From assembly GCA_902802905.1 (NCBI GenBank), contig CADCNT010000004.1, positions 13,073 to 77,072 of the forward strand: DNA of 64,000 bases, in the 5' to 3' direction. The notes below the pieces were generated by a model. The model worked only from the letters and a program-made list of their open reading frames with translations. It was not told the origin of the DNA and ran no database searches. The position numbers and the translations under genes were made by a program. This DNA comes from an uncultured Erysipelotrichaceae bacterium. Lineage in GTDB: Bacteria > Bacillota_I > Bacilli_A > RFN20 > CAG-826. Shown in pieces: positions 16,453 through 36,167 of the stretch; the stretch's first letter is position 1, and each line of letters opens with the position of its first letter.

Positions 16453-16467
16453 AGCTATCATTCTCCA

Positions 16468-16782: not shown

Positions 16783-16922
16783 AAATAAAGTTCTCCTTGA
16801 GCCCAAAAAGGACTCTAACTATTTAGCGAGAGCCCTAAATATTAATAATGATTTATGCACGTCTTCTAATGTGGATATGAAATAGGCACGCATCAATTAA
16901 TAAATAGAGCTTTCGCTTCTTT

Positions 16923-18225: not shown

Positions 18226-18340
18226 CATATTCTCATCACCTATTATCAAATTGTCTCCTCAAATATACTAAGGACGGATATGAAATAGGGACCATCTTGG
18301 TCAAACGTCTTCTTGGTGCAATCACCGAGGAGACTTTTTT

Positions 18341-18511
18341 ATGTTAGCAATTTCAAAAGATGTGGAAGTCACGTTCATGCGTGCTATCCTTAAATATTTT
18401 TATACGCAAAAGCTGCTTACAGAAATTGAATATATACGTATCATAGACGACCTCGAGTCAGGTAATAAATACGTTGATAATAATACAGGAAAGAGTGATG
18501 TATATGTGTAG
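18341..18511 (+). CDS. Small ORF (56 aa) between the repressor and integrase, possibly co-transcribed with int
   Basis: ATG at 18341 is preceded by GAGGAG 8 nt upstream. The TAG stop overlaps the RBS of int. Sequence begins MLAISKDVEVTFMRAILKYFYTQKLLTEIEYIRIIDDLESGNKYV... Confidence 0.4.
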   Translation: MLAISKDVEVTFMRAILKYFYTQKLLTEIEYIRIIDDLESGNKYVDNNTGKSDVYV

Positions 18512-18525
18512 GAGGTTATTCATAT

Positions 18526-20268
18526 ATGAATAAAGTATCAATTATAGCCCCTACAAAAGCTGACGGAATATTCCAAAGAAGCTTAGCTGAACTCAAGGTA
18601 AAGCGTGTAGCGGCTTATGCTCGTGTTAGTACAGAAAGTGACGAGCAAGCAAACTCATTCGAAAACCAAGTTGAAGAATGGACAAGAAGGATCTTAGAAA
18701 ATCCAAATTACAAGCTAGTTAAGATCTATGCAGATGAAGGTATTTCTGGTACTTCAATACGAGGTAGAGAAGGATTCCAGGAAATGATTAGCGATGCCAA
18801 AGCAGGAAAGATTGACTTGATATTAGTTAAATCAATTTCCAGATTCGCAAGAAACACAGTCTTAACAATTCAAACTATTAGAGAACTTAAAGAGTGTGGA
18901 GTCGAAGTATATTTTGATAACGAGAACATTTGGACCTTTGACCCAAAAACAGAATTTATGCTTTCAATCATCAGTATGATGGCTCAAGAGGAGAGCAGAC
19001 ATATTTCTGAAAACGTTACTTGGACTTTCAGAAAGATGATGAACGAAGGTAAAACCTTCATCGCTTCTTCTAATTTCTTGGGTTATGACTATGACAAAGA
19101 GAAAGAAGGGCTAGTCATCAATAAAGAACAGGCACCTATCGTTAAACTTATATACGACTTATACGATCAAGGCGTTGGAACATTAGAAATATGTAGGACT
19201 CTAAAAGCCAGAGGATATAAAACTGTCACTGGCAAAGAAGACTGGCACGCAAGCACTGTTATAGGCATTTTAAAGAACGAAAAATATGTCGGCGACTTGT
19301 TGCTTCAAAAAACATATACGGTTGATTATTTGACCCATAAGAGAAGAGATAACACCGGTCAAAGGCAAAAGTATTATGTTAGAGATGCTCATGAGGCTAT
19401 TATCCCTAGAGATCAATGGGAAAGAGTCCAGGTCAAAGTGAACAACCAAGCTTTAAAGGCAATGGGTGGTCACAGGGATCTAAACCGTTATAACGTCAGG
19501 TATCCTTTGAGTGGAACGCTTATCTGTTTAGAGTGCGGAGAAACATATAAAAGAAGACACTGGTACAACGGTTATGAAGATATCGGCGGAAAGATAATGT
19601 ACCAATGCGGCGGATACGTGTATGACTATAAAAACGAAAAACACTGCAAAGTTTCTCATGGAATTAGCGAGAATCTACTCCACCACACTATTGCTGATGC
19701 CATCAACAATGTTTATTTGAAAGATAAAAGTGTCTTTAGAAAGATTTCCACTCTTATCAGAAAGGGATTATCTGTTACCTCTATAGACGAAAACATTAAT
19801 GCTAAACAAGAAGAAAAAGAGAAGATTAGCAAAGACATAGACTTTATCTTAAAAGAAAGGATGAATGCTGGTCGTACCGATATCAAAGAAAAGCTTGATA
19901 GCCAGTACGCAGAATTAGTTCAACAATATCAACGCATTTGTAGTGAAATCAAAACTCTTCAAGATAGAGAAAGAGATAACCTTGACTCTGAATCTAGATT
20001 AAACAAGATGTTGTCTATCCTGGACGGAAAACAAATCACAGCGGATATGATTACGTTAGATTTATTAGAGGCCTTTATATACCGAATTATTGTTGTTGAT
20101 AGAAAAAACATCGTCATCACAATTAACGCATTTAATTCACTTTCGCTTGAAGACCTAAGAGCTCAGAGAAAAGAGGTTGTTAAAAGAGAGCCTCTATACG
20201 AAGGAAAAGTTAGAATTAAAAACCCAAAAAGATGGGCTGAACTAAATTACAAAGTTGTGCTTGTTTAA
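18526..20268 (+). CDS. int: Large serine recombinase (integrase), 580 aa
   Basis: The resolvase N-terminal domain has the catalytic Ser region (AAYARVSTESDEQANSFENQ). A recombinase domain and a Cys-rich zinc ribbon (CLECGETYKRRHW...C) follow. A C-terminal coiled coil is present. The RBS is AGGAGG. Confidence 0.9.
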   Translation: MNKVSIIAPTKADGIFQRSLAELKVKRVAAYARVSTESDEQANSFENQVEEWTRRILENPNYKLVKIYADEGISGTSIRGREGFQEMISDAKAGKIDLILVKSISRFARNTVLTIQTIRELKECGVEVYFDNENIWTFDPKTEFMLSIISMMAQEESRHISENVTWTFRKMMNEGKTFIASSNFLGYDYDKEKEGLVINKEQAPIVKLIYDLYDQGVGTLEICRTLKARGYKTVTGKEDWHASTVIGILKNEKYVGDLLLQKTYTVDYLTHKRRDNTGQRQKYYVRDAHEAIIPRDQWERVQVKVNNQALKAMGGHRDLNRYNVRYPLSGTLICLECGETYKRRHWYNGYEDIGGKIMYQCGGYVYDYKNEKHCKVSHGISENLLHHTIADAINNVYLKDKSVFRKISTLIRKGLSVTSIDENINAKQEEKEKISKDIDFILKERMNAGRTDIKEKLDSQYAELVQQYQRICSEIKTLQDRERDNLDSESRLNKMLSILDGKQITADMITLDLLEAFIYRIIVVDRKNIVITINAFNSLSLEDLRAQRKEVVKREPLYEGKVRIKNPKRWAELNYKVVLV

Positions 20269-20271: not shown

Positions 20272-20325
20272 AAAAAAAGGCCACATATCCCCGTTATTTT
20301 GAGGAAAAGTGGTCTTTTCTTTTTA
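20272..20325 (+). terminator. Putative terminator after int
   Basis: GGCCAC ... GTGGTC with one G-U pair and a large loop, followed by TTTTCTTTTT. Confidence 0.35.
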
Positions 20326-20502
20326 GTCTTTTTTAGGTAAGCATGCAACGATAATTAAACCAATTAGTCCGAGGAATAAACCTCCAAAAAACCATCCAGC
20401 TACACTTCGATTTTTATAACCAGCAATTATTGGGCAAGCAATCATACTTATAACAGTATTAATAATTCCAAGAACAGTAAATACAGGAGAAATTTCAATC
20501 AT
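20323..20502 (-). CDS. Small hydrophobic peptide (59 aa, 2 predicted TM segments)
   Basis: The translation is MIEISPVFTVLGIINTVISMIACPIIAGYKNRSVAGWFFGGLFLGLIGLIIVACLPKKD. A GGTAGGG RBS-like sequence lies upstream. It sits 79 nt downstream of gene E on the same strand. It is absent from the ORF track because it is shorter than 60 aa. Confidence 0.4.
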   Translation of the reverse strand: MIEISPVFTVLGIINTVISMIACPIIAGYKNRSVAGWFFGGLFLGLIGLIIVACLPKKD

Positions 20503-20581: not shown

Positions 20582-21139
20582 TTAATCACCATTAATAAAA
20601 ATATAATCTTCTGCCACTACTTCCTCTCGAGAGATTGATAAATTGAAATAGTCTTCTTCTTTTGTGTAACGGTCTGTAATGAAATGAAGCTTTTTATTCT
20701 TTGAGCCAAGCAATATTCTGTCTCTATCAATTTGATTTTCCAAGAACGGACCATCAATCAACAAATCAACGGAATTGACAAGTTCTTCGTCTAAAGAATC
20801 TTTGGTTTTTCCAGAAAACATAATAATGCCCAATCCAAGCTCATGTATTCTTGAGTTGAAGTGTTTTAAACCAACCTGTAAAGAAGGTTCTCCTCCTGTA
20901 AGAGTGATACCTTCTATTTTATATTTATCTTTAGCTATTAAAACGATGTTTAGCAACTCGTCTTCTGTAACTATGTGATTTGGCTTGAGGGCTTGCAAAT
21001 CTGGGTTCCCACATCCTTTACAATTGATATTGCATCCTTGAAACCAAATGCAGCACCTATTGAAAGGGCCTTCTATTTTAGTTAGAAGTTTAATATAAGC
21101 AACATTGAACTTAATCATTGAATTCAAATTCGAATCCAT
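20582..21139 (-). CDS. NrdG-type radical-SAM activating enzyme (anaerobic ribonucleotide reductase activase family), 185 aa
   Basis: The radical-SAM cluster is CCIWFQGCNINCKGC (Cx3Cx2C). The SAM motif is GITLTGGEPS. The C-terminal VDLLIDGPFLENQIDRDRILLGSKNKKLHF matches the layout of E. coli NrdG (…SGCVHECPGCYN…GISLSGGDPL…VLVDGKF…RGSSNQ…). No nrdD is nearby. Confidence 0.75.
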   Translation of the reverse strand: MDSNLNSMIKFNVAYIKLLTKIEGPFNRCCIWFQGCNINCKGCGNPDLQALKPNHIVTEDELLNIVLIAKDKYKIEGITLTGGEPSLQVGLKHFNSRIHELGLGIIMFSGKTKDSLDEELVNSVDLLIDGPFLENQIDRDRILLGSKNKKLHFITDRYTKEEDYFNLSISREEVVAEDYIFINGD

Positions 21140-22934
21140 TCTTACCTACTTTAGTAACAAGCTTGCTGCCTTTTAAAGAACGTAAATCATCTTTGTTTTC
21201 AAACAAGAACATGGCAAGCGGATCTAACAATCTATCATTAATAGCGTTGAGAATGTCTCTACCACCCTTAGAAGAATCAACTCCTTTAAGGATATATTCA
21301 ATCGAATCTAGTTCTTTTTCAAATTCTAATTCGAGCTTATATTTTTCTTCAATTCCCTTAATGACTGGCTTGAGTTTAGACTTGCAAATCTTAACTTGGA
21401 AGTCTCTGTCTTGAATAAAATTAAATGGAACGATGTTGTTATAACCAATACGGCCTAAAAGTTCAGGTCTCTTTAATTCATTGTCAAAGTAGTCCTTAAC
21501 AATCTTAATAAATTCTTTAGCAACGCCTTCCTTATCAGTGCTTGCGGCAACTTGATTTGCTCCTAAGTTAGAAGTAAAGACGATGATTGTATCGCTGAAA
21601 TATACTGTTTCGCCTTTAGAATCTGTCAAACGACCATCTTCTAATATTTGTAAAAAGATATCTAGGATTCTAGGATTTGGTTTCGCGGCTTTTTCAATTT
21701 CATCAAATAAAACAACACTGAATGGATGTTCTTTGATTGCATTAGTTAATTGGCCACCTTCTTCATATCCAACATAACCTGGAGCGGCACCAATTAATTT
21801 TTGGTCACTATTCTCTTGAGCATATTCAGACATATCAAAGCGGATACATGCTTGGTCATCACCGAATAAGAATTCTGCTAGTGCTTTTGATAATTCTGTT
21901 TTACCAACACCAGTTGGACCAACAAAGAAGAATACTCCTTTTGGCATTGATCTAGATGATTTCTTGTGGAGACCAGTTAAGCCCATGTAGGCTTTGATAA
22001 CAGTTTTTTCGATTTTCTCAATGGCTTCTTCTTGTCCAACGACACGTTCGGATAATTTCTTTTTAATGTTTTTAACACTAGCTTGGTCTAACTTTTCCCA
22101 AGGATTATCTTTTTCGCCGTATTTGAAGAGATAGAACAATTTGTCAAAGGACATTTTTTCTTCTTTTCTGGACAAACGAGATAATTGAATAATCTCTCTA
22201 TTTGTAAAGTCTTCGAGCATATCGATATATTGAGAATTGTCATTATCCAATAAAGAACTTGTTCCACTAGCAAGACGCACTTCAAATGAGTCTTCAATCT
22301 TCTGAATCATCGCTCTTCTTTCTAATCTATCTGGTTTTTGTAAGGTAACTATTTCTACTTCTGGGTTCCCTTGATAGAAAGATAATGGTAATCCGGATGC
22401 TTTATTAAGAATTATGACAACAACACTCTCGTTGCAATCAGAATTAAGGTAATCAACTTTTCTATCCTTAAGCGCTTTTCCTAATAAAGTAATATTTTGT
22501 CTTTCATCATCTGAAAGCCCATTCACGCTGAATAAATATTCAGACCAGTTAATAATGAAAGCTACTTTCTTTTTCTTATCTATGACGTTCTTATAAACAA
22601 CATTAAGTATTTCAGCTGGGCTTTTGAATAATCCTTGTTGAGATTTTGGATTTTTATCTTCTTCCTCATCTTCAAAATCATAGCTATCGCCTTCAACTTC
22701 AACTTCGTCTGTTAAAGTTAGCTTATCAATAGCGCCTGTTGCACCTTCAACACGATCCCAATAAACGATGTCAGGATAATCCATATCTTTAAACATCGCT
22801 TCTAGATATTCTCTTAAAGTGACGATCTTGTTTTTTTCATCAAGATAAACATCGCCGACATTGCCATCAATCATGACACACTTCTTGATACCGGCGCTTC
22901 TTCTGATTTTGTTAAAACTATTTTGTAAAGACAT
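21111..22934 (-). CDS. Novel N-terminal domain (about 300 aa) fused to a Clp/ClpB D2-type AAA+ ATPase, 607 aa
   Basis: The D2 module runs RVVGQEEAI...GVFFFVGPTGVGKTELSKALAEFLFGDDQACIRFDMSEY...IGAAPGYVGYEEGGQLTNAI...VVLFDEIEKA...LLGRI. The AGGAGG RBS is 8 nt upstream. The gene overlaps gene E by 29 nt. Confidence 0.8.
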   Translation of the reverse strand: MSLQNSFNKIRRSAGIKKCVMIDGNVGDVYLDEKNKIVTLREYLEAMFKDMDYPDIVYWDRVEGATGAIDKLTLTDEVEVEGDSYDFEDEEEDKNPKSQQGLFKSPAEILNVVYKNVIDKKKKVAFIINWSEYLFSVNGLSDDERQNITLLGKALKDRKVDYLNSDCNESVVVIILNKASGLPLSFYQGNPEVEIVTLQKPDRLERRAMIQKIEDSFEVRLASGTSSLLDNDNSQYIDMLEDFTNREIIQLSRLSRKEEKMSFDKLFYLFKYGEKDNPWEKLDQASVKNIKKKLSERVVGQEEAIEKIEKTVIKAYMGLTGLHKKSSRSMPKGVFFFVGPTGVGKTELSKALAEFLFGDDQACIRFDMSEYAQENSDQKLIGAAPGYVGYEEGGQLTNAIKEHPFSVVLFDEIEKAAKPNPRILDIFLQILEDGRLTDSKGETVYFSDTIIVFTSNLGANQVAASTDKEGVAKEFIKIVKDYFDNELKRPELLGRIGYNNIVPFNFIQDRDFQVKICKSKLKPVIKGIEEKYKLELEFEKELDSIEYILKGVDSSKGGRDILNAINDRLLDPLAMFLFENKDDLRSLKGSKLVTKVGKNGFEFEFND

Positions 22935-22946
22935 GTTGTTATCCTC

Positions 22947-24029
22947 CTATTTCTTATTTTTGCTTGTATCAACATGTTGATAATGCATTTTTTGTATTTT
23001 ATCAGGATTCTCCCATTGTACTTCTTCGTGAAGAATATTGATATCGTAAATGTTTTTCAGGTCTTCAAGGAACGGCTCAATATCTTTTCTACAAGCTTGA
23101 CCCTCATATTCATCGAAATGGTACATAAATTTGCCATTTAATTGGATTTCAAACTCTGCCATTTGGCCTGAAGCCTTAAGTGCCACTAATTTGACCACAT
23201 TTCTTTCTTTATCAATTTTTAGGTTCTTCTTAGTATCAACAATGAAGCCTCTTGCTTTAATTGCTTTGATAATGATTTTTAATGTTTCTTTTCTGATCTT
23301 CTCATCAGTAATGGACTCGTTAGCAACAGATGTGGCCTCGTCAATTGTTGTAACTGATTCAAGCACTTCTTCATCAACACCACTGTTTCTAAGGTCTTCT
23401 TTATATTCCTCAATAACTGCCCTAGTCTTTTTACCAAGAAGGACGTCATATTCTTCTTGAGCTTTGGATAATACTTCATCAAAACTAAGTCCTTGATTTT
23501 CCTCTTTAAGAAGTTCACGATATGCTAATTCTCTTAATGAAATATCGTCAATTTGATTGATTTTATCCATGATTTGCTGTGAAAACTGTAAAACTCCTTG
23601 TGACTTAGCAAGTAAATTATTACCAGCATCTAAGAGCCCTTCATCAATCATTTCATCAATCATTGCAAGCTTAGAACCGGTTAGTTCGTTTACAGTTCTA
23701 GTAAGGTCTGCCGACTGTCTTTCTAATTGTTCTCTCACTCTTAAATAATCAGCATAACGGGAGTCGTGATTATTTGTAGCAAACTTTTTTAAAGCTTGAT
23801 ATTGCTCTAATGTTGCTTTAAATTCTTCAATCTTTTTTTTGATTGTTTCTTTAGATTCAAGAAGATAATTCTCGTATTCAACAACTTTGGCTGATTCGAG
23901 CTTGCTTGCGGTCTTGTGAATCTTATCAATGGTTTTATCAATTTTGCACAAAGAATGAATGGCAGTATCACATTCGGCCTGAATTTTAATCGTTAAACCT
24001 TCGTAATCAACAGTTACTTGTTGGCTCAT
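22947..24029 (-). CDS. Coiled-coil protein of unknown function, 360 aa
   Basis: The sequence is heptad-rich with a small C-terminal alpha/beta-like region. Its start overlaps the stop of gene B (ATGA). Confidence 0.65.
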   Translation of the reverse strand: MSQQVTVDYEGLTIKIQAECDTAIHSLCKIDKTIDKIHKTASKLESAKVVEYENYLLESKETIKKKIEEFKATLEQYQALKKFATNNHDSRYADYLRVREQLERQSADLTRTVNELTGSKLAMIDEMIDEGLLDAGNNLLAKSQGVLQFSQQIMDKINQIDDISLRELAYRELLKEENQGLSFDEVLSKAQEEYDVLLGKKTRAVIEEYKEDLRNSGVDEEVLESVTTIDEATSVANESITDEKIRKETLKIIIKAIKARGFIVDTKKNLKIDKERNVVKLVALKASGQMAEFEIQLNGKFMYHFDEYEGQACRKDIEPFLEDLKNIYDINILHEEVQWENPDKIQKMHYQHVDTSKNKK

Positions 24030-26170
24030 TTAATTTCTTCCTCCAAATCAAATATTTCTTTTGCCCATCTTCTTAAGTCATCGACGGTAAAGTTTGCAGT
24101 TCTATCTTCAGGGTGAATAAAAGCGTTTCTATTTTCTCTAAAATCATGCAAGTCACTTATAATGCTCTTTTCAATTACACCGGTTCTTCTTGCATCAGAA
24201 AGCATATCTGAAAGTGTTCCATCCAATTGATATTTGTTCTTCAATATCATTTCTAATTTGGCTGAAAGATTAACAAAGACAAATTGATAATCGCCTGCAA
24301 CAATCTTTTTCTCTATAACTTCTGGTTTAATGTTACTTGGATTTTTCAAAGCCGAGTCAATCATATTTAAATAATCATTGATGGTTTCAAAGACGGACAT
24401 AAAACCTTCGTATTCAGCAAACAACTCTACGTTAGCTTTTTTAAACAATTGAATGTTTTTGAAGAGCGAATAAGCAGTACCGTATTTATTTCTAAATCCA
24501 TTTCTATCAATATTTTCTTCATCAATGGAATAAGATTTATAATTGGTTACCCCAGATATTGCCTTTAAGCCATCTAGCAATTCGGCAAAATTAACTAAGT
24601 CTATAAGTGATTTCTCTTCAACGGCTTTTTCTTTTAACGCTTCTTCGACTGGATTAATGAATAAAATCACCACTTCTTTAGCAAATCCGTTAGATACCAG
24701 CAATTCATATGTTTCCACTTTCTTAGTAAACTTTTTGTCATCAGCAAAGATAAGTTTGAGAGCTTCTTCACTACTCAATGATAAGTATTTAGGAATTGAG
24801 GATGTGATTTTAAGAACTGTCTCTAAATTTCCTTGATTACATGATTTTAAATAATCCGTGTAATTAATTTTGGTAAGTTCTTTATGCTTTAAAAGGATAT
24901 TAGGATTCATTACTGCGGTTGACTTCATTTCGTTGAGTCTCACCAAATTAGATTCGCTGCTATCAACCATATAGCCATCCATTAAAGCAGATGCCAAGTC
25001 ATAATCTTTTGTAATATTTGTCAAAAGTGTTAATTCTTTAAATTTTTCTTCTGAATACTCAGATCTTGCTTTTAGATAGATTCCAACCACTTTCTTTAGC
25101 TCGTCATTAGACAACTTAATTCTCAAAACCAACGGAAGTGTAATAGTGCTGAATTTTTCATCTTTAAAATCAAATGTTGCAGGAATATAAGCAAAAATTG
25201 AATCATGAGCATCGACTTGAATAAATTCAAACAATTTATCAAATTCATTAATTGCGTTCTCATCTTTACAAACAAGACCGTTGCTTACAGTGTAATTGCC
25301 TTTGGTAAAAAGCAACTTAAACTTCTGTTTCAAAACATCATCTATATCTTTAGGAATAATAATTCCACTTATCTTTTCGCTATCAAATAAGTCAAATGAA
25401 GCATGTTCGGTATATTTGGATTTAAATTTAAATCTATTTTTATATGAGATGGATTTTGTGATTGTTTCGTTTGTATAATAAGTCTCTGCAAATTTTTGTA
25501 ATAAAGGATCTTCAAACTTAATGCTGATAGATGAACCGTCAAGAGACATTTCACAATCATATTTGACTGTCCATTTCTCATACTCATCAATAGTTTCTAC
25601 TTTGGTAATAATTTCCTCTTTTTTAACAGGCACGCCTTTTCCTTTGTTTAAATTAAGGAAATTCTCAACATCCTTATTGCACTTGAAATTATCATAAAAT
25701 TCAGGTGTTAAAGCACAATCCATAAGAGGTTTTGGCTCTAAATCAGGATCAATCTTTAACAGCAATTCATTCTTAGCGATGTCATAAAATACAGCTAGTT
25801 TCGCTTCTTTATTCACACCTGTTGGTATTGATTCTTCGGCGAAAATCTTCTTGCCCTTTTCGGTAAATCTAAAATGTTCGATGTTATAGGCATCAAATTC
25901 ATTTTTATAAAATTGATCATAATTACATACCAATATTTCCTGTCTGATTAAGCTATCAAGTTCTTCAGCAAAGATGTAATGAAGATTCTTTGGAACACCA
26001 AAGTTCTCTAAAACACTACATAAACGTGCCGTTCTATCTTTTGATTCATTAATAAGGACCAACAAAATATAAGCCACGCCTGATGGTTTCTTGACTTCTG
26101 AATAGGTAATTAGCTCATTCATCTTAAAGAAAGGGAACTGAATAGAGGTATCTAACTTAAACTTATCCAT
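24026..26170 (-). CDS. 714-aa protein with a C-terminal HEPN-like motif (Rx4H), a putative RNase effector
   Basis: The C-terminus reads ...DLHDFRENRNAFIHPEDRTANFTVDDLRRWAKEI. The N-terminal 550 aa are unrecognised. Its start overlaps the stop of gene A by 8 nt. Confidence 0.6.
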   Translation of the reverse strand: MDKFKLDTSIQFPFFKMNELITYSEVKKPSGVAYILLVLINESKDRTARLCSVLENFGVPKNLHYIFAEELDSLIRQEILVCNYDQFYKNEFDAYNIEHFRFTEKGKKIFAEESIPTGVNKEAKLAVFYDIAKNELLLKIDPDLEPKPLMDCALTPEFYDNFKCNKDVENFLNLNKGKGVPVKKEEIITKVETIDEYEKWTVKYDCEMSLDGSSISIKFEDPLLQKFAETYYTNETITKSISYKNRFKFKSKYTEHASFDLFDSEKISGIIIPKDIDDVLKQKFKLLFTKGNYTVSNGLVCKDENAINEFDKLFEFIQVDAHDSIFAYIPATFDFKDEKFSTITLPLVLRIKLSNDELKKVVGIYLKARSEYSEEKFKELTLLTNITKDYDLASALMDGYMVDSSESNLVRLNEMKSTAVMNPNILLKHKELTKINYTDYLKSCNQGNLETVLKITSSIPKYLSLSSEEALKLIFADDKKFTKKVETYELLVSNGFAKEVVILFINPVEEALKEKAVEEKSLIDLVNFAELLDGLKAISGVTNYKSYSIDEENIDRNGFRNKYGTAYSLFKNIQLFKKANVELFAEYEGFMSVFETINDYLNMIDSALKNPSNIKPEVIEKKIVAGDYQFVFVNLSAKLEMILKNKYQLDGTLSDMLSDARRTGVIEKSIISDLHDFRENRNAFIHPEDRTANFTVDDLRRWAKEIFDLEEEIK

Positions 26171-29100
26171 TTATCTTGTTCTCCCTTCCACTAATAACAT
26201 CGGTGTCATCTATAACTTTTCCGTATCTTTCTATTGTTGAAAGAATTTCTTCATAGACTCTGAAACCTCTTTGATCCATGCCTGGTCTACCATAAACATC
26301 TGGCAAATCAATAACACCTTTTGACTCAAGGTAGTTTCTGTTTCCAACAATGATAAGCATTCTTCTTGCTCTAGATAGGGCGACATTAATTCTTTGGTAA
26401 GCCAAAATGAAGCCCGGATTGCTTCTTCTTGGGTCTTCTGGGTTACGCACGGTTGACAAGATAATGATGTCTCTTTCATCGCCTTGGAAATCATCAACGG
26501 TGGACACAATCATTTTTTCAGCATCAGTCTTAAATGCATCTGTCTTTACTTTTTCACTCTTGATAATTTCTTTAATTCTTCTTGCCTGGTCACCATAAGT
26601 ACAAATTACACCAATGCTTAATTTTTCATGCGTAGGATTTTCTTTAAAGAAGGTATTAAGCTTTTTCAACATCTCAGCGACCACTCTCGCTTCTCCAGTG
26701 TTGTACATGGATGTAGAATCGGCCTCATGTGTCTCGTTTCCTTTGCAGTCAATAAAGTAAATGTGCTTGTCTGGCTCAATGATATTTCTACCATTTGAAT
26801 AGAGCCTGACATTATGTTGCTTCTTGTTGTTTTGTCCTGGCCAACCAAGTTTTAATTCACCACGATAGAAATGATTGAAAACATGCATAATGTGCTCGTG
26901 GCATCTATATTGCTGAACTAGCATGGTTTTATAACTGCTAGGAATCTTCTCAAATAATGTTTTGAAGAAACATTCTTCATACAGTTCAGTGAATCTCTTG
27001 TTAATGTCTTTATTAATGATTGAATCATCTAAGCCTTCAAAGTCATCATCACGCAGCTTGGAGAACTCATACATAGGTGGCAATTGTCTATGGTCGCCAA
27101 CAAGAATAACGGTCTTGCCATATAAAATTGGTATGAGCAAATCAATGAAGCTAGATTTAGATACTTCATCGATAATAACCACATCAATGCCAACAGATTT
27201 AATATCAACTCCATCAATGTTGTATTCAGAAAGGGAATCTAAGTTTCTGCTACTATAATAATCGCTTGAGGTACAAGTTATACCAAACACGTTAGCGTTC
27301 TCAAACAGTTCTCTGGTATAGTCTTTTCTATCTCCTTCAATAACATCGTTGGTTGTGATGTAATTGGAGATTTTTTCATACATTGGTATCTTTTCTTTAT
27401 TCTCTTGTTCTTTACTGGTGTAATCAGTTTCTAGTTCATTCCACTTCTTCTTAATGATGACAAGAGCTTCTTCAATATCGTTAAAAGGTTCAGATATTTC
27501 AAAGTCTCTGAAGAATTGGATAACACCACTTTCTAATTTGTACTTGTTCTCTTGAACATCTTTAACGTCGTTTCTATCTTGAATATCGATTATTTGCTCA
27601 TTGATGGATTGAATTGATTTCTTGCGTGTGCTCATTTCTTTATCAAGCTTCTCTTGTTCGAGCTCAAGTTTAGCCAGCTCACCATTGCATCTTTCAATAA
27701 AATCATATTTAATCTCAGAAACTTGTTCTTTAAGTGAGGCAACAGAGTTATAAATTGAAGAGATATTTTTAACTAAGTAATCGAATTTGAAAATTCCAGA
27801 TAATTTTAAATCTTCTGGCAGTTTTTCTTCGTTAGAATCTAATTGCTTTTTAATCTCGATTAATTGTTTTCTTAATTGATCATATTCCTCTTCTTTGCCA
27901 GGAATCACATCATCAAAATCATCTTTGCAATTTTTAATTGCATCTCTTATTCTATTACGCTCAATCTCGAGCATTGTTTTATTTGAATCCGGATTAATAA
28001 CGGCGAGCTCTCTTGTTATTTCTTCCATCTTGATGCTATTGATTGCCTTAACTAATTCTGAGATATCTTTATCAACAAATATTTCCTTGTCGAACAAAGG
28101 AATTAAACTGTTGCGACATTCAATAATTAAATCAGTTTTTACATCCTCGTCTGGTTTGAGGTTGTCGTTTTCAATGTGGCGAATAGTTCTTCTGACGATA
28201 TCTATTTCTATTCTTAAAGAGTCTTTTTTGTTGCTTAAACCAGTTATTTCAACACTAATGACTTTAGCTTGCTTTTCTAAACCCTTAATCTCCTCAGCGG
28301 CATCGTTAAGAACCTTGATTGACTTATCAACTTTAGCTTTTAAGAACACTAACTTGTCAAAACTTTCTTTGAATTCCTCTTTGTTCTTTTGGAAGTTCTT
28401 ATATCTCTCCACAGCCTTCTTCATGTTAGAAGAAATATTTTCATAGAAATTATCAACTAAGTATTTTGGATCGTATTCATTTTCTTTCTTAGCTGTAGTT
28501 GGAATTAAGCGAATCGGCACTATTTCCGCAATCTTTGGCAATCTTTCAAAAACATTATCAATAGCTTTATGGGTTTCACTGGATATTAAAACCTTCTTGC
28601 CCTTTTTAACCATTTGAGCAACTGTTTCTGCTATGACTTGTGTCTTTCCTGTGCCAGGAGGACCTTGCAATAGGAAAATGCCATTACTAGAAACAGCTTT
28701 TCTTACTGCTTCTTTTTGCATTTCGTTTAATGAATCTAAATACCATGTCCAATCGCTTGGCTCAGTTTGAACACTATTAAGTTCTTCTGGATTAAATAAA
28801 TAAGTTGAAAGATATGGGTTTTTAACATAACCAGAATAAAAGTTTTTAAGTGCTTGTTCTTGTCTCTTAATCTTGGCTGTTTCCGCCCTACTGTCATAGA
28901 CAATAAATTGGCAGCTGTTAATAGCTTTTATTTGCTTATCGTTAATAGCATTATTAATATCGCCTAGTCTAAAATATAGAGCAAAACGAATGATTGTTTC
29001 TTCTTCAATAACGACTTGTTTATCATTTTTTAGCTTTGCATCGAGCTCTTCCTTGGCTGCTATTTTTTCGTTTCTAATATCGTCTTTATATTTATTATTA

Positions 29101-30674
29101 ATCTCAATTATTTTTTCACTTCTTAAACGCTTGAGTTGGTTATCGTAATTGCTTCTAAGCTTCTGCTCATATGCCGCTAGCAACTTTTCGTTTCTCTCAA
29201 CATAAAGAGATCTGACATCAAGTTTTGAGTACTCTTTTTCTAATATTTCGCTAATGCGTTCTTGATAATCATTTTCTTTTTCTTTTTTATCCTTTGGATA
29301 TTTCTTGAGAACATCTTTTCTAATAGACGCTTTCATTGTTTTAATCTTTTCAACAATAGCTGTGTCCTTGTTCTCTATTACTTCGTCATCAAGTTTTGAA
29401 GAAAGCTCTTGTTTTTTCTCTGTCAAAGATTCAGCAAGTTCTTTATCAAACTTTTTAGATGTTTCTTTAATAAAACTCTCAACTTCTGAAGAAACAATTC
29501 TTTCATACTTTGAATCTATCGTCTTGTATTCTTTGTCGATTGATAATTCATATTGATACTCTAATTCACTCAAGTGTTCTTCTGGCAAAACATCATAAGA
29601 AAAGACTTTGAACCTATCTCCCAAAGCATATCCAGAGGTCAACATCTCACCAATTCTAGGTGTTTCACCATTTCTTCCGGCAACGGTTGGATCCAAAGAA
29701 GTGATGAAAACATTATCGCTAGCTAGAGAACGAATGGCGCGCTCTTCTTCACTAACACTTTTGCCTCTTTTTAAAACTTTTTTAGATTCGAATTCTTTTT
29801 TATTTCTTTCAATTATTAAACGAACAATTGGGAATTCTTCAGCTTCTTCTATCTTGTCAGACAAAAGAATCATTTCACCATAGCCAAATTCTGGTCTGTT
29901 ATCTAAAAGATAATCTTCATAAATGGAGGAGTTCCTTTTGTATTCTTTTTTATTAACTGCATAGGCTTTAACGAATGTAGCGCTATCTAGTTTAAAGTTT
30001 CTCTTTGCTTGTTCTTGCAAATAGTAATTTCTAAATTCGATGTACTTATTCCACTCTTCGTATCTTCTTCTGACTTCTTCAGGATGAGAAACGGTGAAAC
30101 AGCTATTTATTAATTCGAGAACATTGTTTGGAGTGAAGTATGTTTCGTTATAATCGACATTTGGAATTGACCACACGCTTACATTGAAAGTACCATTGAC
30201 CCCACTTCTTCTTTCTGTTGAAAAAGAATTACATGCCATTGCCGAAATAACCATATCGTGAGGCGAGGACATAGATTCATCAATTAGTTGAATGCCTTTA
30301 ACTTCAAAGAACTTTTGCTTACCACCCTCTACTATTTTGCCAACCAATATAATGTTTTGATTATCTGGTAGATACGTGCGCATGGACATAGTTAATTCTG
30401 GTCTAATGACCACATTATCTAAAAACTGTGTTTTGCCGCTTGATGATTCTCTTTTTTCTCTTAAAAAATTTGGACAAGAAATGTAGTATCTCTTGACCAT
30501 TCCTGATGGAAAGCATGTCTCAATAAATCTTTCGAAACTATTCGACTGTCTTCTTGGAGGGATTCTTTTTTGTAGATTTTTAAACTGTCCTCTTAATGAC
30601 TCGCCAAAAAGCTCGTTTTTAACGTTTATCTCTTTGTCTAATCTATCAGCAAATGAAATAAATAAATATGGCAT
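26163..30674 (-). CDS. Upf1/DNA2-like SF1 helicase, 1503 aa, with an N-terminal extension of about 630 aa and a coiled-coil insertion of about 500 aa between Walker A and motif II
   Basis: Walker A is LLQGPPGTGKTQVIAETV, motif II is VVIIDEVSKSS, and Upf1-type motifs V/VI are VDDFQGDERDIIILSTVR and INVALSRARRMLIIVGN. The RBS is AAGGAA 7 nt upstream. Confidence 0.8.
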   Translation of the reverse strand: MPYLFISFADRLDKEINVKNELFGESLRGQFKNLQKRIPPRRQSNSFERFIETCFPSGMVKRYYISCPNFLREKRESSSGKTQFLDNVVIRPELTMSMRTYLPDNQNIILVGKIVEGGKQKFFEVKGIQLIDESMSSPHDMVISAMACNSFSTERRSGVNGTFNVSVWSIPNVDYNETYFTPNNVLELINSCFTVSHPEEVRRRYEEWNKYIEFRNYYLQEQAKRNFKLDSATFVKAYAVNKKEYKRNSSIYEDYLLDNRPEFGYGEMILLSDKIEEAEEFPIVRLIIERNKKEFESKKVLKRGKSVSEEERAIRSLASDNVFITSLDPTVAGRNGETPRIGEMLTSGYALGDRFKVFSYDVLPEEHLSELEYQYELSIDKEYKTIDSKYERIVSSEVESFIKETSKKFDKELAESLTEKKQELSSKLDDEVIENKDTAIVEKIKTMKASIRKDVLKKYPKDKKEKENDYQERISEILEKEYSKLDVRSLYVERNEKLLAAYEQKLRSNYDNQLKRLRSEKIIEINNKYKDDIRNEKIAAKEELDAKLKNDKQVVIEEETIIRFALYFRLGDINNAINDKQIKAINSCQFIVYDSRAETAKIKRQEQALKNFYSGYVKNPYLSTYLFNPEELNSVQTEPSDWTWYLDSLNEMQKEAVRKAVSSNGIFLLQGPPGTGKTQVIAETVAQMVKKGKKVLISSETHKAIDNVFERLPKIAEIVPIRLIPTTAKKENEYDPKYLVDNFYENISSNMKKAVERYKNFQKNKEEFKESFDKLVFLKAKVDKSIKVLNDAAEEIKGLEKQAKVISVEITGLSNKKDSLRIEIDIVRRTIRHIENDNLKPDEDVKTDLIIECRNSLIPLFDKEIFVDKDISELVKAINSIKMEEITRELAVINPDSNKTMLEIERNRIRDAIKNCKDDFDDVIPGKEEEYDQLRKQLIEIKKQLDSNEEKLPEDLKLSGIFKFDYLVKNISSIYNSVASLKEQVSEIKYDFIERCNGELAKLELEQEKLDKEMSTRKKSIQSINEQIIDIQDRNDVKDVQENKYKLESGVIQFFRDFEISEPFNDIEEALVIIKKKWNELETDYTSKEQENKEKIPMYEKISNYITTNDVIEGDRKDYTRELFENANVFGITCTSSDYYSSRNLDSLSEYNIDGVDIKSVGIDVVIIDEVSKSSFIDLLIPILYGKTVILVGDHRQLPPMYEFSKLRDDDFEGLDDSIINKDINKRFTELYEECFFKTLFEKIPSSYKTMLVQQYRCHEHIMHVFNHFYRGELKLGWPGQNNKKQHNVRLYSNGRNIIEPDKHIYFIDCKGNETHEADSTSMYNTGEARVVAEMLKKLNTFFKENPTHEKLSIGVICTYGDQARRIKEIIKSEKVKTDAFKTDAEKMIVSTVDDFQGDERDIIILSTVRNPEDPRRSNPGFILAYQRINVALSRARRMLIIVGNRNYLESKGVIDLPDVYGRPGMDQRGFRVYEEILSTIERYGKVIDDTDVISGRENKING

Positions 30675-30834: not shown

Positions 30835-31038
30835 TTAGTCAATTGATATTCCATCGATGCCAAGCATTTTGCACATTTTGAAGAATGTGTCAATGTCGGT
30901 TCCGTGGTTGATAATTCGACTCACGGTCTTACGACTAGCACCAAACTTTTTACCAAAATTGCTTTGGTTTTTATATTGGTCTTTAATGCGGCATTTGATT
31001 TCTTCCATAATGTTTTTGGAAGAGTAGCAATTAGTCAT
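30835..31038 (-). CDS. Small HTH (XRE-like) regulator, 67 aa
   Basis: HTH region FGKKFGASRKTVSRIINHG. Confidence 0.6.
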   Translation of the reverse strand: MTNCYSSKNIMEEIKCRIKDQYKNQSNFGKKFGASRKTVSRIINHGTDIDTFFKMCKMLGIDGISID

Positions 31039-31090: not shown

Positions 31091-32053
31091 TTACATTAAA
31101 TTGAAGAAATTATCTTTTAAAATCTTGAGAAGTGATTCATCAGAATTCCAATATGCTTCATCTGGGTCTTCTCCATACATCATTTCGCAGAATTCTTTAA
31201 CAAATTCAAAGAGGTTATTTAATGTTTCATCAACAAACTCAGGGCCAATCTTTAACCAATTGCCTGCATACATGCCGTTTTCATATTCGAACCCCACTTC
31301 TCTATAAGAGTAGACGAATTTGGATTGAAACTTCTTTAGTTTTTCATCTTTTTCAAAAGGGTTATTAGCTAAAGCATTATATGCATTAAGTGTGTTGTGT
31401 TTTAAGAAGTTATCAATTTTGTTCAAAACATCGAAATAACGATAATGAGGAAGTTTATATAAAGGGTTGGCTCTTTTTGTCTCACCGTTAAATCTTTCCT
31501 GAACATGAAAGAAGAATGATTTGTATGTGAAATCTTGGGTGTTGGTATATCCTCTTTCTTTGATAACTAAGAGAATGGTTCTAAACAACTCCGTGAAGAT
31601 CTTTTGCAAATATTGCAAATGAATGCTTTTGATGACTTCGCCATATTTCTTTTGACGCTTAGCACCAGCAAGAAGAGCGTTAAATTCAATATCTTCAAAA
31701 TCATCAGCACTAGAAGTATGAGCGATTTCGTTAACTCTAACGCTTTCTCTCACTTCTTCTGGTGTTGTTAGATTGTTGATAGCCTCTTTATATTCGAGGT
31801 TCCAATCTTTTGTGAGCCTATTTATTTGGTCCCTTAAAACGTTGACCGCATAATTTGAGCGGTTTTTATATCTAGGGATGAAATAATGTGTGTTCCTAGG
31901 TGTTGTAAAAAGAGCTTCAGGAAAGCATCCATCACAGTGAAGCAACTTTAATCTCTTTGTATCGATATGATATCTTCCATCTTTAAGATGAAAGCCATAA
32001 TAAGCATAGTCACTAGGGCTAACTTTATCGTAATCAAATAGTTCTCTAGTCAT
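31091..32053 (-). CDS. Hypothetical protein, 320 aa
   Basis: Long ORF immediately upstream of the HTH gene with the same orientation. No recognised motifs. Confidence 0.55.
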   Translation of the reverse strand: MTRELFDYDKVSPSDYAYYGFHLKDGRYHIDTKRLKLLHCDGCFPEALFTTPRNTHYFIPRYKNRSNYAVNVLRDQINRLTKDWNLEYKEAINNLTTPEEVRESVRVNEIAHTSSADDFEDIEFNALLAGAKRQKKYGEVIKSIHLQYLQKIFTELFRTILLVIKERGYTNTQDFTYKSFFFHVQERFNGETKRANPLYKLPHYRYFDVLNKIDNFLKHNTLNAYNALANNPFEKDEKLKKFQSKFVYSYREVGFEYENGMYAGNWLKIGPEFVDETLNNLFEFVKEFCEMMYGEDPDEAYWNSDESLLKILKDNFFNLM

Positions 32054-32365: not shown

Positions 32366-33703
32366 CTATTTCTGTTCGGATAAAAATCTCTTAAGTAAAA
32401 AGGTCAAGAAATAAGGGAAAGTGTATATATTATTTGCAAAGCCAACATTCTTTTCGGCTAATTTAATCCCAAAATTAATGTCACTTATTTTCTCATCTTC
32501 TATAAAAGCTTTGACTGATTTCATTTTTCCATCAGTAGCCTTAACATCTATTGGTATCAGATTATTTGCATCCCTAACAAAGAACTCGACTTCTTGTGTG
32601 GCATCTTCGTTTTTAAAGAAATATAAGTCATATCCCGACTTCTTCAACATATCTGCAACAATATTCTCATAAATGCCACCTTTATATGTATTGAAGTTCT
32701 TGTTTTCTCTTAAATCTTTTGATGATTCTTCATCTAGTGATGCTACTAGTAGACCAGTATCCATAAAATACATGCGATAATTATCTGGATCATAATTGCC
32801 CTTGAGTGGTAGAGCCAAATCATTTAAGCAATAAGAAACATTAACAATTCCAGCGTCAATTAACCAGTCTGTTACTCCAACATATTCTCTATTTCTTGCA
32901 CCATGAGCAACTTTAGAAATTCTAAATTTTTTATTCTCTTGACTTAGAAAAACCGGAATCTTTCTAAAGACATTCAATATTTTTGTTTTATCTAATCCTT
33001 CAGCATATTTAGTAATGTCTTCCTCATAATCAAGGATGATTTGTTTTTGAAGTGCTAAAGTGCCACTATAATTCTTTTGATTCACAAAGAGTTTAACAAT
33101 TTCAGGCATACCGCCTAATACCATATATTGATGGAATCTTTCTAGAAGGACATTGAATTGCGAGTCAGATAACGGAGTTAACTCCTTCATACACTCATAA
33201 ACTTTCTCAATTTGTTCTTCTTTATAGCCTAACGCCCACAAGAATTCTTCAAAATCCATAGAGTACATTGTATAGTCTATTTTATGTCCTGTACTTACTG
33301 ATTCTATTTCTTTATATGAAAGTCCCATTAAAGAACCAGAGCAAATAACATCAAATCTTCCGTCTAATTTAAAAGATTTTAATGATGTCGCAGCATTAAC
33401 ACATTTTTGAATTTCGTCAAAAAAGATAAGGGTCTTGCCAGGAATGAATTCCAAAGATGGATCTTTTAAAGAAATGTTTTCAAGTATTTTATCCACTTTA
33501 TAGCCATCATCAAAAATATCTCTATATTCGGGGTTGAGGACAAAATTTATTTCCACTAATGAAAGATTGTTTCTTTTCGCAAACTCTTCGACTGTTTTGG
33601 TTTTGCCAATTTGTCTAGCTCCTTTAATAATAAGTGGCTTTTTATTTTTGCTAATAAACCATTCATCTAAAAACTTATCTATTTTTCTTCTTAAATAATC
33701 CAT
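32366..33703 (-). CDS. AAA+ ATPase of the DUF4143/COG1373 type
   Basis: P-loop PLIIKGARQIGKTKTVEEF, Walker B LIFFDEIQK and a conserved C-terminal DUF4143-like region. The GAGGT RBS serves ATG at 33703. The ORF track starts at 33724. Confidence 0.75.
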   Translation of the reverse strand: MDYLRRKIDKFLDEWFISKNKKPLIIKGARQIGKTKTVEEFAKRNNLSLVEINFVLNPEYRDIFDDGYKVDKILENISLKDPSLEFIPGKTLIFFDEIQKCVNAATSLKSFKLDGRFDVICSGSLMGLSYKEIESVSTGHKIDYTMYSMDFEEFLWALGYKEEQIEKVYECMKELTPLSDSQFNVLLERFHQYMVLGGMPEIVKLFVNQKNYSGTLALQKQIILDYEEDITKYAEGLDKTKILNVFRKIPVFLSQENKKFRISKVAHGARNREYVGVTDWLIDAGIVNVSYCLNDLALPLKGNYDPDNYRMYFMDTGLLVASLDEESSKDLRENKNFNTYKGGIYENIVADMLKKSGYDLYFFKNEDATQEVEFFVRDANNLIPIDVKATDGKMKSVKAFIEDEKISDINFGIKLAEKNVGFANNIYTFPYFLTFLLKRFLSEQK

Positions 33704-33727
33704 ATCATGACCTCGCGAATACATATT

Positions 33728-34034: not shown

Positions 34035-36080
34035 TCAATTTCTTGTTTTTATTTTAATTAGGAAGAAAGCAGTTGTTCCTCCAATAAGAGTGAGAACACC
34101 AATTGTTACAGAAACAGCAATGATAATATCACTAGAATTGTTATTACTTTTTGGAGACTTATATGGATGAGGTTCAACTGGTTCTAAAGAAGGGAAGATA
34201 AAGTTTTCAAGTTCACTACTGCCATATCGATAGATCGCTAAATAATATTTATTCATGAATCTTTGATGATCATTAGTAGGGTTATCAGTATATTTAAATC
34301 CAATATTAGTGAATCTACTCTTATCTTCGATATAACCATAATTATCTTTATGAATTTCCCATAACGCTTTTAAAGATTCTAAAGAAGTGACCACATGATT
34401 ATTTTCATCAACTTCAATCGAGTTAATCATTCCATTAATGAATGGTTCTCCATAAGCGTCTTTAAAGATTAATTGATTACCAGTAGTAATGACGATATGA
34501 TACATCCCGACTTTATGGAAGATATAGTTAAAGGTGACATAACTATATTCAACATGTCCCCAGATATATTGACCTCCACTTGTTGTGGCAACAAAAATCG
34601 TTGATAAATCTTTATCCACTAAACCGAATTGATGTTCTTCATTTTCTTTTTCAACATAAAGATAGATTTCGGCTTGCCAAGATTCATCTGGAAGATTTTG
34701 ATTATTCATCTTAATGCCTGTATCTAATACATATTGTTTTGGATACACTCCATGGTCATTTTTGCCAGTGAAACAATAATAGTTGTCATTAAGATATTTA
34801 AGATATAAATGAGTGTTAGCCTCAAGTATTTTAGGAGTGTATTCAAATTCACAGTTCTCGTCTTTATACACTCCTACGAACCCTTTATATTCATAAGAAG
34901 GGGCTTCTGGAGTAAATTTCTCAGAGGCGTAAGCGACTTGAGAAGGGATTGTGTCCATATCGACTTTCGTTTTTCCATCATAATATAAACAAGTCAATTC
35001 AATCGTAAAAGCCTCGACATGAGGTTTAACAATGAACACTAAAGAATCATCTTCCATTAGGGAAAATACATCATAATTTCCACTTACTGTAAAAATAAAG
35101 GTATCTCCACTTATTTCTCCAAATGTTGTTTCTTGAGAAGAAGAAATACCGGCTTTCTTTTCCCATGGATGAGAATCATAAGAGAAATCTCTAACAGTAA
35201 TTAAATCATCTTTTTTGATTTCAAGATTACGATATTCGGCAAGATTATAACCACTGACATTGCTCATCTTAATTGAATCATAATATGTCCATTTTTCTAC
35301 ACCAGATAAGATACCGCTAATGTAATATCCTTCAAATTCAGGAGGAAAAACATATTCATCAACAACAAAACTATCTTCTTGAGTGACAAAGATATTTAAT
35401 GATTTAGAGTTTTCTCCAACAGAATATTTTTCACCATATATCTTCTCTTCATCATTAAAATAACTTCTGACATAAAATTCTTCATTAGCAATAGCGGCGT
35501 AATTAATGATTTCCGCTTTATCTCCATGAGTGCCTTCGGTTAATTTAATTGCATTTTTAAATTTCCAATCGGTTTTAGAACCAACTAAATAATATCCATC
35601 TCCTTCAGTAGGAACATCATCTTCATAATGTTCCCAGTGACCAGTTGCATGATAAGTGTCTAAATCCCACCACTCACCACTATCGAGAACATACATATTC
35701 TTTTTATCAGTAGGAATAGTAAGAGAAGGAGTATCTCCATTGATGAGTTCAGTTCCTTCTTCCCAAAGAGAATAGAAGTATACAGTTGTATATGTATATT
35801 CCTTAGGTAAAGTTAATCGATAAATATGATTAGTGTCATAATTAGGGACTTTTTTCATTTCCACATCATATGAATGTCCATCTCCATCATTGACCGCACA
35901 GTGGAGATATTGACTAAATGGGGCGGGATAATAAGTAACATCTAAATAGATGACGTTATTATTTTCAAGAGCGTCTACTTTCTTCGCTTGGTTATTTTGT
36001 TGATTAATTAATAAATAACTAAATGAAAGAGCAATAGTAGATAACCCCATTATTAATAAAGATGATATTTTCTTTTTCAT
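34035..36080 (-). CDS. Secreted surface protein with a signal peptide and a C-terminal TM anchor, 681 aa
   Basis: N-terminus MKKKISSLLIMGLSTIALSF. The C-terminus is hydrophobic (IIIAVSVTIGVLTLIGGTTAFFLI) followed by KIKTRN. Confidence 0.65.
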   Translation of the reverse strand: MKKKISSLLIMGLSTIALSFSYLLINQQNNQAKKVDALENNNVIYLDVTYYPAPFSQYLHCAVNDGDGHSYDVEMKKVPNYDTNHIYRLTLPKEYTYTTVYFYSLWEEGTELINGDTPSLTIPTDKKNMYVLDSGEWWDLDTYHATGHWEHYEDDVPTEGDGYYLVGSKTDWKFKNAIKLTEGTHGDKAEIINYAAIANEEFYVRSYFNDEEKIYGEKYSVGENSKSLNIFVTQEDSFVVDEYVFPPEFEGYYISGILSGVEKWTYYDSIKMSNVSGYNLAEYRNLEIKKDDLITVRDFSYDSHPWEKKAGISSSQETTFGEISGDTFIFTVSGNYDVFSLMEDDSLVFIVKPHVEAFTIELTCLYYDGKTKVDMDTIPSQVAYASEKFTPEAPSYEYKGFVGVYKDENCEFEYTPKILEANTHLYLKYLNDNYYCFTGKNDHGVYPKQYVLDTGIKMNNQNLPDESWQAEIYLYVEKENEEHQFGLVDKDLSTIFVATTSGGQYIWGHVEYSYVTFNYIFHKVGMYHIVITTGNQLIFKDAYGEPFINGMINSIEVDENNHVVTSLESLKALWEIHKDNYGYIEDKSRFTNIGFKYTDNPTNDHQRFMNKYYLAIYRYGSSELENFIFPSLEPVEPHPYKSPKSNNNSSDIIIAVSVTIGVLTLIGGTTAFFLIKIKTRN

Positions 36081-36167
36081 GATGATAACCTCTTTTTTTC
36101 TATTTTATATAAATAGGTGTCACAAAAGTGCCACATAGGTAAGATATAGATGTATGCCTGTAACGTA

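Follow-up and report, generated by a model that had tools for sequence, protein, structure and literature searches.

The stretch analysed here, a 64,000-nucleotide (nt) segment of contig CADCNT010000004.1 from an uncultured Erysipelotrichaceae bacterium (the window), contains a tight row of five minus-strand genes, A-B-C-D-E, at positions 20582-30674. They encode an Upf1-like superfamily 1B (SF1B) helicase, a modular putative effector with a C-terminal HEPN domain, a coiled-coil-like protein, a ClpB-D2-like AAA+ ATPase, and a minimal radical S-adenosylmethionine (SAM) protein, respectively. From the sequences we infer, with somewhat better than even confidence, that this operon is a mobile anti-phage or anti-plasmid defence system related to type I Mokosh. 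It is best filed as an unnamed variant of the helicase–nuclease (Mokosh-like) kind, and there is a real chance that its AAA+/radical SAM core makes the system something new.

Organization of the operon

Gene A (1503 amino acids (aa); 26163..30674) overlaps gene B (714 aa; 24026..26170) by 8 nt, and B overlaps gene C (360 aa; 22947..24029) by 4 nt at the stop and start codons. A gap of 12 nt separates C from gene D (607 aa; 21111..22934), and D overlaps gene E (185 aa; 20582..21139) by 29 nt. All coordinates are positions in the window unless a locus is named, and residues follow the protein numbering. The original prediction made for this sequence concerned only A and B and assigned them the span 24026-30674; both open reading frames (ORFs) lie there on the minus strand and contain the peptides quoted, but the unit comprises five genes, of which this span takes in only two.

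Genomes were scanned with gene D, one genome per species, which gave 158 loci; the counts below refer to the best 80 of them. The informative set comprises the 55 of these 80 loci with enough flanking sequence on both sides, and hidden Markov models (HMMs) were used for the five families A-E. The order A-B-C-D-E is kept in 51 of the 55 well-flanked loci. Seven loci were additionally reached via B homologues, from 100% down to ~18% identity. In all seven, the helicase, B, a protein of 340-371 aa, the ClpB-like ATPase, and the small radical SAM protein follow one another in that order, and A-B without C-D-E was never seen among them. The helicase–HEPN pairing proposed earlier thus holds insofar as both genes are real and adjoining, but it is not self-contained: the A-B pair is apparently part of a five-gene unit and translationally coupled to C-D-E.

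Gene A encodes an Upf1-like helicase

The earlier assignment of the Upf1/DNA2 SF1B motif set to gene A was borne out, and the sequence confirms that the gene encodes an intact SF1B helicase, Upf1-like and of the MkoA kind known from Mokosh. The curated models checked here and below were those of Pfam, PADLOC 2023, and NCBIfam (June 2026). Pfam AAA_11 (E-value 1.4e-30) and AAA_12 (8.8e-44) match the protein, and the PADLOC model of MkoA (PDLC03920) matches residues 414-1483 with an E-value of 6.8e-98 (327 bits). The closest solved relatives in the PDB are IGHMBP2, Sen1, Upf1, and DNA2. Conservation among 57 homologues is at least 95% for each of motifs I-VI (GPPGTGKT, DE, GDHRQLPP, QYR, TVDDFQGDERD, and RINVALSRAR). 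The helicase core occupies residues 649-1450 (26325..28730), with the Walker A motif GPPGTGKT at residues 671-678 (28641-28664) and motifs V-VI, VDDFQGDERDIIILSTVR...INVALSRARRMLIIVGN, at residues 1393-1445 (26340-26498).

Two stretches of the protein are weakly conserved, residues ~400-550 and ~750-1050. The latter, an insert that splits the core (27525-28427), is only 23-37% conserved in the 57 homologues. Both are probably coiled coil, judging from their composition and low conservation. Residues 1-640, scanned alone, gave no Pfam match even at an E-value of 5. There is no Pfam Pkinase match on A, residues 1-640 scanned alone included, nor could an Upf1 CH or zinc-finger domain on A or an Upf2/Upf3-related partner gene in the operon be detected with Pfam.

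Gene B ends in a HEPN domain

When 1.84 billion cluster representatives were searched with a profile of B, 206 homologues emerged (representatives at 50% identity), mostly 700-750 aa in length. The C-terminus of B is confirmed, as far as sequence comparison allows, as a DUF4145-type HEPN domain of the RNase type with a conserved RNxxxH motif, in agreement with the HEPN signature that had been read at the end of this protein. The domain covers residues 618-710 (24041..24319), and its motif, RNAFIH, residues 681-686 (24113-24130). Full-length B scores 20.8 bits against DUF4145, just under the Pfam threshold, whereas the C-terminal 170 aa alone score 25.2 bits versus a cut-off of 23.1. Anantharaman et al. 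(PMC3710099) placed DUF4145 in the HEPN superfamily, and the DUF4145 domain of RAZR/PD-T7-4 is a proven defence effector that cleaves single-stranded RNA and requires both R and H (PMC13017515).

The bare motif is weak evidence, since Rx4H arises 0.17 times per shuffled B sequence (RNx3H is expected 0.012 times). However, RNAFIH is more than a chance occurrence because of its column conservation and the matches to HEPN profiles. Only four columns, P13, G106, R681, and H686, are invariant among 57 homologues with 18-49% identity, and N682 is at least 90% conserved; the conservation of the Rx4H residues, on which the original prediction depended, was therefore found. In 87 full-length sequences, R681, N682, and H686 are conserved at 92%, 90%, and 95%, and RNxxxH is kept in 60 of the 61 full-length B proteins of the genome loci, the exception without the motif being that of locus L090. 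Across 36 isolated C-terminal domains of B homologues, only R, N, and H are invariant. DUF4145 is matched by 30 of these 36 divergent domains, and other HEPN families were also found among them: HEPN_RiboL-PSP (15), Apea (8), HepT (5), Swt1 (3), and MAE_28990 (1).

The AlphaFold2 model of the HEPN domain is all-helical, with a predicted local distance difference test score (pLDDT) of 93, and its top Foldseek matches are HEPN proteins, which, as far as computation allows, is in keeping with a HEPN fold. For full-length B, modelled with a pLDDT of 87, Foldseek against the PDB gave only helical-repeat noise, and a profile of the HEPN domain searched against PDB sequences likewise gave noise and no HEPN match. 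Pfam gave no match to the N-terminal or the middle part of B even at an E-value of 5. To judge by predicted secondary structure only, the N-terminal module (residues 1-230; 25481..26170) looks like a winged helix plus a beta-rich part. A profile search with this module for further effector fusions returned 24 fragments and no new architecture.

In a metagenome-assembled genome (MAG) of Planctomycetota (locus L086, 5903-8842), B is 979 aa long and has two tandem HEPN domains, each with RNEFQH. These could form a Cas13-like intramolecular pair.

Exchange of HEPN for PIN on plasmids

In a plasmid survey, a tblastn search with D gave 13 records with a near full-length match, five of which, all from Pseudomonadota, were inspected: Polaromonas pPNAP02, Acinetobacter pNDM1_010055, and plasmids of Photobacterium, Moellerella, and Leisingera. 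All five have the five-gene order, and gene B of each is annotated as a PIN-domain protein. Pfam PIN_4 is located at the C-terminal end of plasmid B, in the place of HEPN in the window protein (E-values of 7e-24 and 1.5e-19), and the four acidic PIN residues are invariant in the plasmid proteins. The N-terminal ~220 residues of the HEPN-type and PIN-type proteins are homologous (hhalign probability 96.3%, E-value 1.6e-9, 210 columns), and the HMMs derived from Bacillota also recognise plasmid A, C, D, and E.

HEPN and PIN have been exchanged on a common B scaffold while the operon otherwise remained constant; therefore, B would be the effector and RNA cleavage its output. This exchange is the strongest argument for B as an effector that cleaves RNA. 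It supports the RNA-cleaving effector of the original prediction, whose further suggestion of abortive infection is plausible.

In Acinetobacter pNDM1_010055 (locus L092, 11718-13700), a thymidylate-kinase-like gene, a 328-aa radical SAM gene, and a 162-aa ORF are located directly after the operon. The arrangement is reminiscent of a kinase-associated prokaryotic viperin pair.

Genes C, D, and E

In the protein encoded by gene C, a coiled-coil-like N-terminal half precedes a conserved domain at the C-terminal end (residues 240-345; 22995-23312). G310 and C313, in the sequence YEGQAC, are invariant, and an NPD motif is nearly invariant. Its homologues form at least 598 clusters, all unnamed. 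No match was found in Pfam (even at an E-value of 5), PADLOC, NCBIfam, or the PDB, the last of which gave coiled-coil noise.

Gene D matches Pfam AAA_2 (E-value 1.4e-50; residues 331-496, 21447-21944) and ClpB_D2-small. The NCBIfam ClpB model is matched with an E-value of 4e-75 in its D2 half only (model positions 558-834 of 853; 254 bits versus a cut-off of 1232); the architecture of ClpB/Hsp104, with two active AAA+ tiers (D1 and D2), an N-domain, and a coiled-coil M-domain, is therefore not present. The Walker A and B motifs and the GYVG pore loop are conserved. The N-terminal 275 aa (22110-22934) constitute a conserved domain with no P-loop in the alignment and no Pfam match even at an E-value of 5. 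In the PDB, a profile of this domain matched nothing but two classical AAA domains, those of paraplegin and Rpt3, and both weakly (E-values of 0.038 and 0.83). That it is a degenerate copy of the protein's own AAA+ domain found no support in hhalign (probability 0.2%), and the idea is kept only as a hint from the weak PDB matches.

Gene E encodes a protein of the NrdG/PflA activase type, with matches to Pfam Fer4_12 (E-value 7.5e-24) and Radical_SAM (5.9e-11). The CX3CX2C motif (C36, C40, and C43; 21011-21034) and GGEP are conserved in seven diverse loci. The match to NCBIfam NrdG (E-value 1.8e-18) scores 66.9 bits versus a cut-off of 126, and E stays below every curated cut-off; the PDB match to pyruvate formate-lyase (PFL) activase has an E-value of 2e-3. 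Activases acting on proteins typically have the minimal size seen in E.

Proposed mechanism

In the mechanism that we propose, helicase A with its long coiled-coil inserts would load on the nucleic acid or ribonucleoprotein of the invader as an ATP-driven sensor or motor. Effector B would cut RNA, either the transcripts of the invader or all RNA, the latter leading to abortive infection. C-D-E would gate or activate A-B through protein remodelling by the ATP-driven D and radical SAM chemistry of E on a macromolecule, with the YEGQAC loop of C as a candidate target of E. This gating is the weakest step of the mechanism, because no substrate for E was found.

Measured against the window proteins across the 80 genome loci, A reaches a median identity of 38%, B 27%, C 35%, D 69%, and E 48%. 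B thus evolves fastest and D slowest, an unusually large rate gap inside one operon. The fast evolution of B is as expected if the mechanism is right, because B would be the part that meets the invader.

Distribution and mobility

The hosts of the best 80 loci include Erysipelotrichaceae, other Bacilli, Clostridia, Mollicutes, Bacteroidales, Cytophagales, Helicobacteraceae, Spirochaetaceae, Planctomycetota, and Ruminobacter. The operon is present in six or more phyla: Bacillota, Bacteroidota, Campylobacterota, Spirochaetota, Planctomycetota, and Pseudomonadota. Its distribution is patchy, with an identity of D across phyla of 62-92%. The system is also present on seven viral contigs of IMG/VR; six of them contain the complete operon, and the seventh, truncated at its end, contains B-E. 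In phage genomes, only generic ClpB-like half-length matches to D were found.

In the window, the operon is located between a gene for a 580-aa large serine recombinase (18526-20268) and an AAA_14/DUF4143 gene (32366-33724) that matches the PADLOC candidate PDC-S01 with an E-value of 1.6e-145. The 286 flanking ORFs of the 80 loci fall into 269 clusters, and the commonest recurrent families are serine recombinases, PDC-S01, and C5 DNA methylases. Serine recombinases stand beside the operon also in loci L001-L005, and the PDC-S01 family recurs beside it in four other flanking-gene clusters. Thoeris adjoins the operon in L001, and a NACHT-like protein in L002. The picture is that of a horizontally mobile cassette which, judging by its neighbours, is often but not always found in defence or mobile-element surroundings.

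The adjoining large serine recombinases (in the window and in L001-L005), the conjugative and other plasmids, and the IMG/VR contigs would also suit an operon that serves its carrier element, by addiction or post-segregational killing, by exclusion of rival phages or plasmids, or by control of the element's own RNA. We regard this as rather unlikely, since the operon lacks a conserved small antitoxin-like gene. Moreover, many known defence systems are carried in the same way, and such a role overlaps with defence rather than excluding it.

A gene for an RNase III-like protein of 166 aa, with no domain that binds double-stranded RNA, follows E in 11 of the 80 loci. In L001 (15576-16076), this protein has the catalytic motifs E...GD and D..E. 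The gene is absent from the window, where a 59-aa hydrophobic ORF (20323-20502) occupies the place after E.

Comparison with known systems

The source annotations of the operon genes are generic, and no publication describing the gene set was found in a literature coverage without many subscription journals. Among the curated models of NCBIfam (June 2026), Pfam, and PADLOC, none names B or C, in the HEPN or the PIN version, and none reaches its cut-off for A, D, or E of either version.

Mokosh systems are defined by a COG1112 helicase and a PLD nuclease, either separate as MkoB or fused as in MkoC, with a kinase domain on the MkoA protein of type I (Millman et al., preprint 10.1101/2022.05.11.491447). 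The likeness to type I is that gene A matches MkoA and that a separate nuclease-type effector gene comes after the helicase gene. Here, however, a HEPN (or PIN) domain is located on a 714-aa modular protein, and C, D, and E have no Mokosh counterpart. Neither a PLD nuclease nor MkoB was found in the five proteins or in ORF U upstream of A with Pfam, PADLOC, and NCBIfam. Canonical Mokosh was rejected because there is no PLD nuclease; the Ser/Thr-kinase domain of MkoA was likewise not found.

RAZR/PD-T7-4 has a HEPN domain of the same Pfam family, DUF4145, with an essential R...H pair; however, it is a single small zinc-finger protein activated by assembling on phage ring proteins (PMC13017515). 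In the operon, by contrast, HEPN ends a large protein encoded among five genes with a helicase. Giant DNA-restricting proteins fuse HEPN to an SF1 helicase (PMC3710099). Hhe and its giant relatives likewise join HEPN and an SF1 helicase of broadly the same class, and the Hhe models match A with an E-value of 4e-10. Hhe differs from the operon in being one polypeptide with a Vsr DNase and DUF4011 and with no AAA+ or radical SAM partner. The assignment to Hhe was rejected, as neither Vsr nor DUF4011 is present and the score is 37.7 bits versus a family cut-off of 2000 bits.

The core of eukaryotic nonsense-mediated mRNA decay (NMD), Upf1 together with the SMG6 PIN domain, resembles the operon in joining an Upf1-family helicase with an endoribonuclease, and by analogy the proteobacterial version with its PIN_4 domain may be compared with it. 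The PIN_4 family of Pfam also holds the PIN domain of SMG6. The bacterial operon differs in being mobile and patchy, and no CH domain, Upf2/3, or ribosome or termination link was seen in it. The NMD-like RNA surveillance suggested for A and B is thus an analogy only: neither Upf1's CH domain nor a link to translation was found.

The AAA+ domain of D is matched by the PADLOC models of Dodola DolB and PDC-M37B (E-values of 1.8e-33 and 2.6e-20). The likeness is confined to the AAA+ core; the partners DolA/DUF6414 and PDC-M37A are absent, and the N-terminal domain of D and its radical SAM partner are specific to this operon in comparison with Dodola and PDC-M37. E shares the CX3CX2C and GGEP core and the minimal size with NrdG and PflA, but it differs from them in scoring under all curated cut-offs, and no glycyl-radical enzyme partner was found nor, by eye, a glycyl-radical motif. 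Viperins are radical SAM enzymes that are able to act in defence. E differs from them in lacking the C-terminal nucleotide-binding extension, and the pVip models match it with an E-value of only 1e-4.

Weighing of the defence reading

Certain findings weigh against a single defence system built around an RNA-acting helicase. C-D-E or D-E occur without A-B in three of the 55 well-flanked loci, and distant D-E pairs are found with other partners and without A, B, and C (L109-L113, L115, and L119, all on metagenome contigs). The relatives of A include DNA-acting enzymes (DNA2 and IGHMBP2). No glycyl-radical motif (RVxG[YFW]) was seen by eye in the alignments of C, D, and E or at the conserved positions of A and B. 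The defence-island signal among the neighbours is moderate, many of them being housekeeping genes.

C-D-E alone is located beside housekeeping genes in L076 (8866-12461) and L058 (9200-12365), and the same layout with short flanks is found in L079 (2898-6495); the neighbours are a class II tRNA synthetase, an ABC transporter, and Hsp90. L041 contains D-E alone, and L020 contains A-B-C-D without E. The MAG with L076 also holds L020. In the distant D-E relatives, the AAA+ protein has the same N-terminal domain and is accompanied by an NrdG-like radical SAM protein. The partners common to these loci, typed via PDB sequence matches, include a protein with a Ser/Thr-kinase domain (E-values of 1e-18 to 1e-22) and two small protein families. 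Because D-E and C-D-E occur without A-B, the five genes are possibly two cooperating modules and not one machine. The location of the distant relatives in different operons suggests that D-E is a portable module.

These data can be taken further, to two independent systems that stand side by side, a Mokosh-like A-B and a separate C-D-E module with a different job. C-D-E alone in L076, L079, and L058, D-E alone in L041, the MAG with both A-B-C-D and C-D-E loci, and the Ser/Thr-kinase proteins in place of A-B beside the distant D-E pairs would all fit such an arrangement. It is nevertheless unlikely: all seven loci reached via B contain C-D-E, and 51 of the 55 well-flanked loci reached via D contain all five genes in one order. 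In addition, B and C overlap by 4 nt, and the order persists in Pseudomonadota despite the exchanged effector domain of B.

We tentatively put forward, as a possibility well short of an even chance, that D-E, with or without C, is a conserved and portable engine for interchangeable front ends, which would be Ser/Thr-kinase proteins in the distant relatives and, here, the Upf1-like helicase together with its HEPN or PIN partner. If so, radical SAM chemistry on a protein, delivered or reset by an unfoldase, would be a new switch for a prokaryotic immune effector, and the system would be a new defence class, not a Mokosh variant. The bacterial Upf1 and HEPN/PIN module could be tested as an evolutionary relative of eukaryotic RNA surveillance.

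The relatives DNA2 and IGHMBP2 also act on DNA, and the substrate of A may therefore be RNA or DNA. The presence of these two enzymes among the closest solved relatives, and of HEPN and SF1 helicase fusions in the DNA-restricting giant proteins (PMC3710099), would agree with a DNA-targeting system, in which A would be a DNA helicase comparable to DNA2 or RecD2, and HEPN/PIN would be non-catalytic or only a secondary suicide effector. Such a system seems improbable. No DNase-type domain (PLD, restriction endonuclease, HNH, or Vsr) was found in the five proteins with Pfam, PADLOC, and NCBIfam, and B is most strongly conserved at its RNase-type catalytic residues.

A housekeeping machine for RNA quality control or processing, a true bacterial counterpart of NMD, is highly improbable: the Upf1-like helicase, the endoribonuclease domain (HEPN, or PIN_4 in Pseudomonadota), and the RNase III-like gene after the operon in 11 of 80 loci would suit it, but not the patchy spread across phyla (62-92% identity of D), the varying insertion sites, the common carriage by mobile elements, the very fast evolution of B, or the lack of an Upf1 CH or ribosome-linked domain detectable with Pfam.

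Should the operon prove functional in defence, it would represent a Mokosh-like helicase system with an RNase effector, in which HEPN and PIN are exchanged on a common scaffold, and RNA sensing by helicases of the MkoA type would become directly testable. It would also be the first case, as far as we have searched, of an enzyme of the glycyl-radical-activase type and a ClpB-like unfoldase as obligatory partners of a helicase and nuclease; these AAA+ and radical SAM partners would point to new regulatory chemistry in immunity. The system would be widespread in gut anaerobes (Bacillota, Bacteroidota, and Mollicutes) and on proteobacterial plasmids, including an NDM-1 plasmid of Acinetobacter. 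To current annotation tools, the operon is visible only as an orphan "MkoA" and hypothetical proteins.

Other features of the window

A possible accessory gene, ORF U (320 aa; 31091..32053, minus strand), is located 416 nt upstream of A. A homologous ORF precedes A in L001, and an upstream ORF matching a mixed profile was found in 34 of the 80 loci. ORF U itself has no domain match in Pfam (a relaxed E-value of 5 included). Between U and A, a promoter-like site on the minus strand (30866-30893) can be noted from a consensus match only.

Farther from the operon, two minus-strand ORFs of 681 and 307 aa (34035-37091), with no Pfam or PADLOC match, are located between the PDC-S01 gene and transporter genes. 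On the other side, the region 12057-20268 encodes a small terminase subunit, a VapE-like primase/helicase, a helix-turn-helix regulator, and the large serine recombinase, and resembles the backbone of an integrative element, or of a phage satellite, that carries the defence genes. At 3940-11576, in the same element and on the strand of the operon, a 1591-aa type IIG restriction-modification enzyme (PADLOC E-value 1e-230) is adjoined by a 952-aa DrmD/BrxH-like SNF2 helicase (E-value 1e-99).

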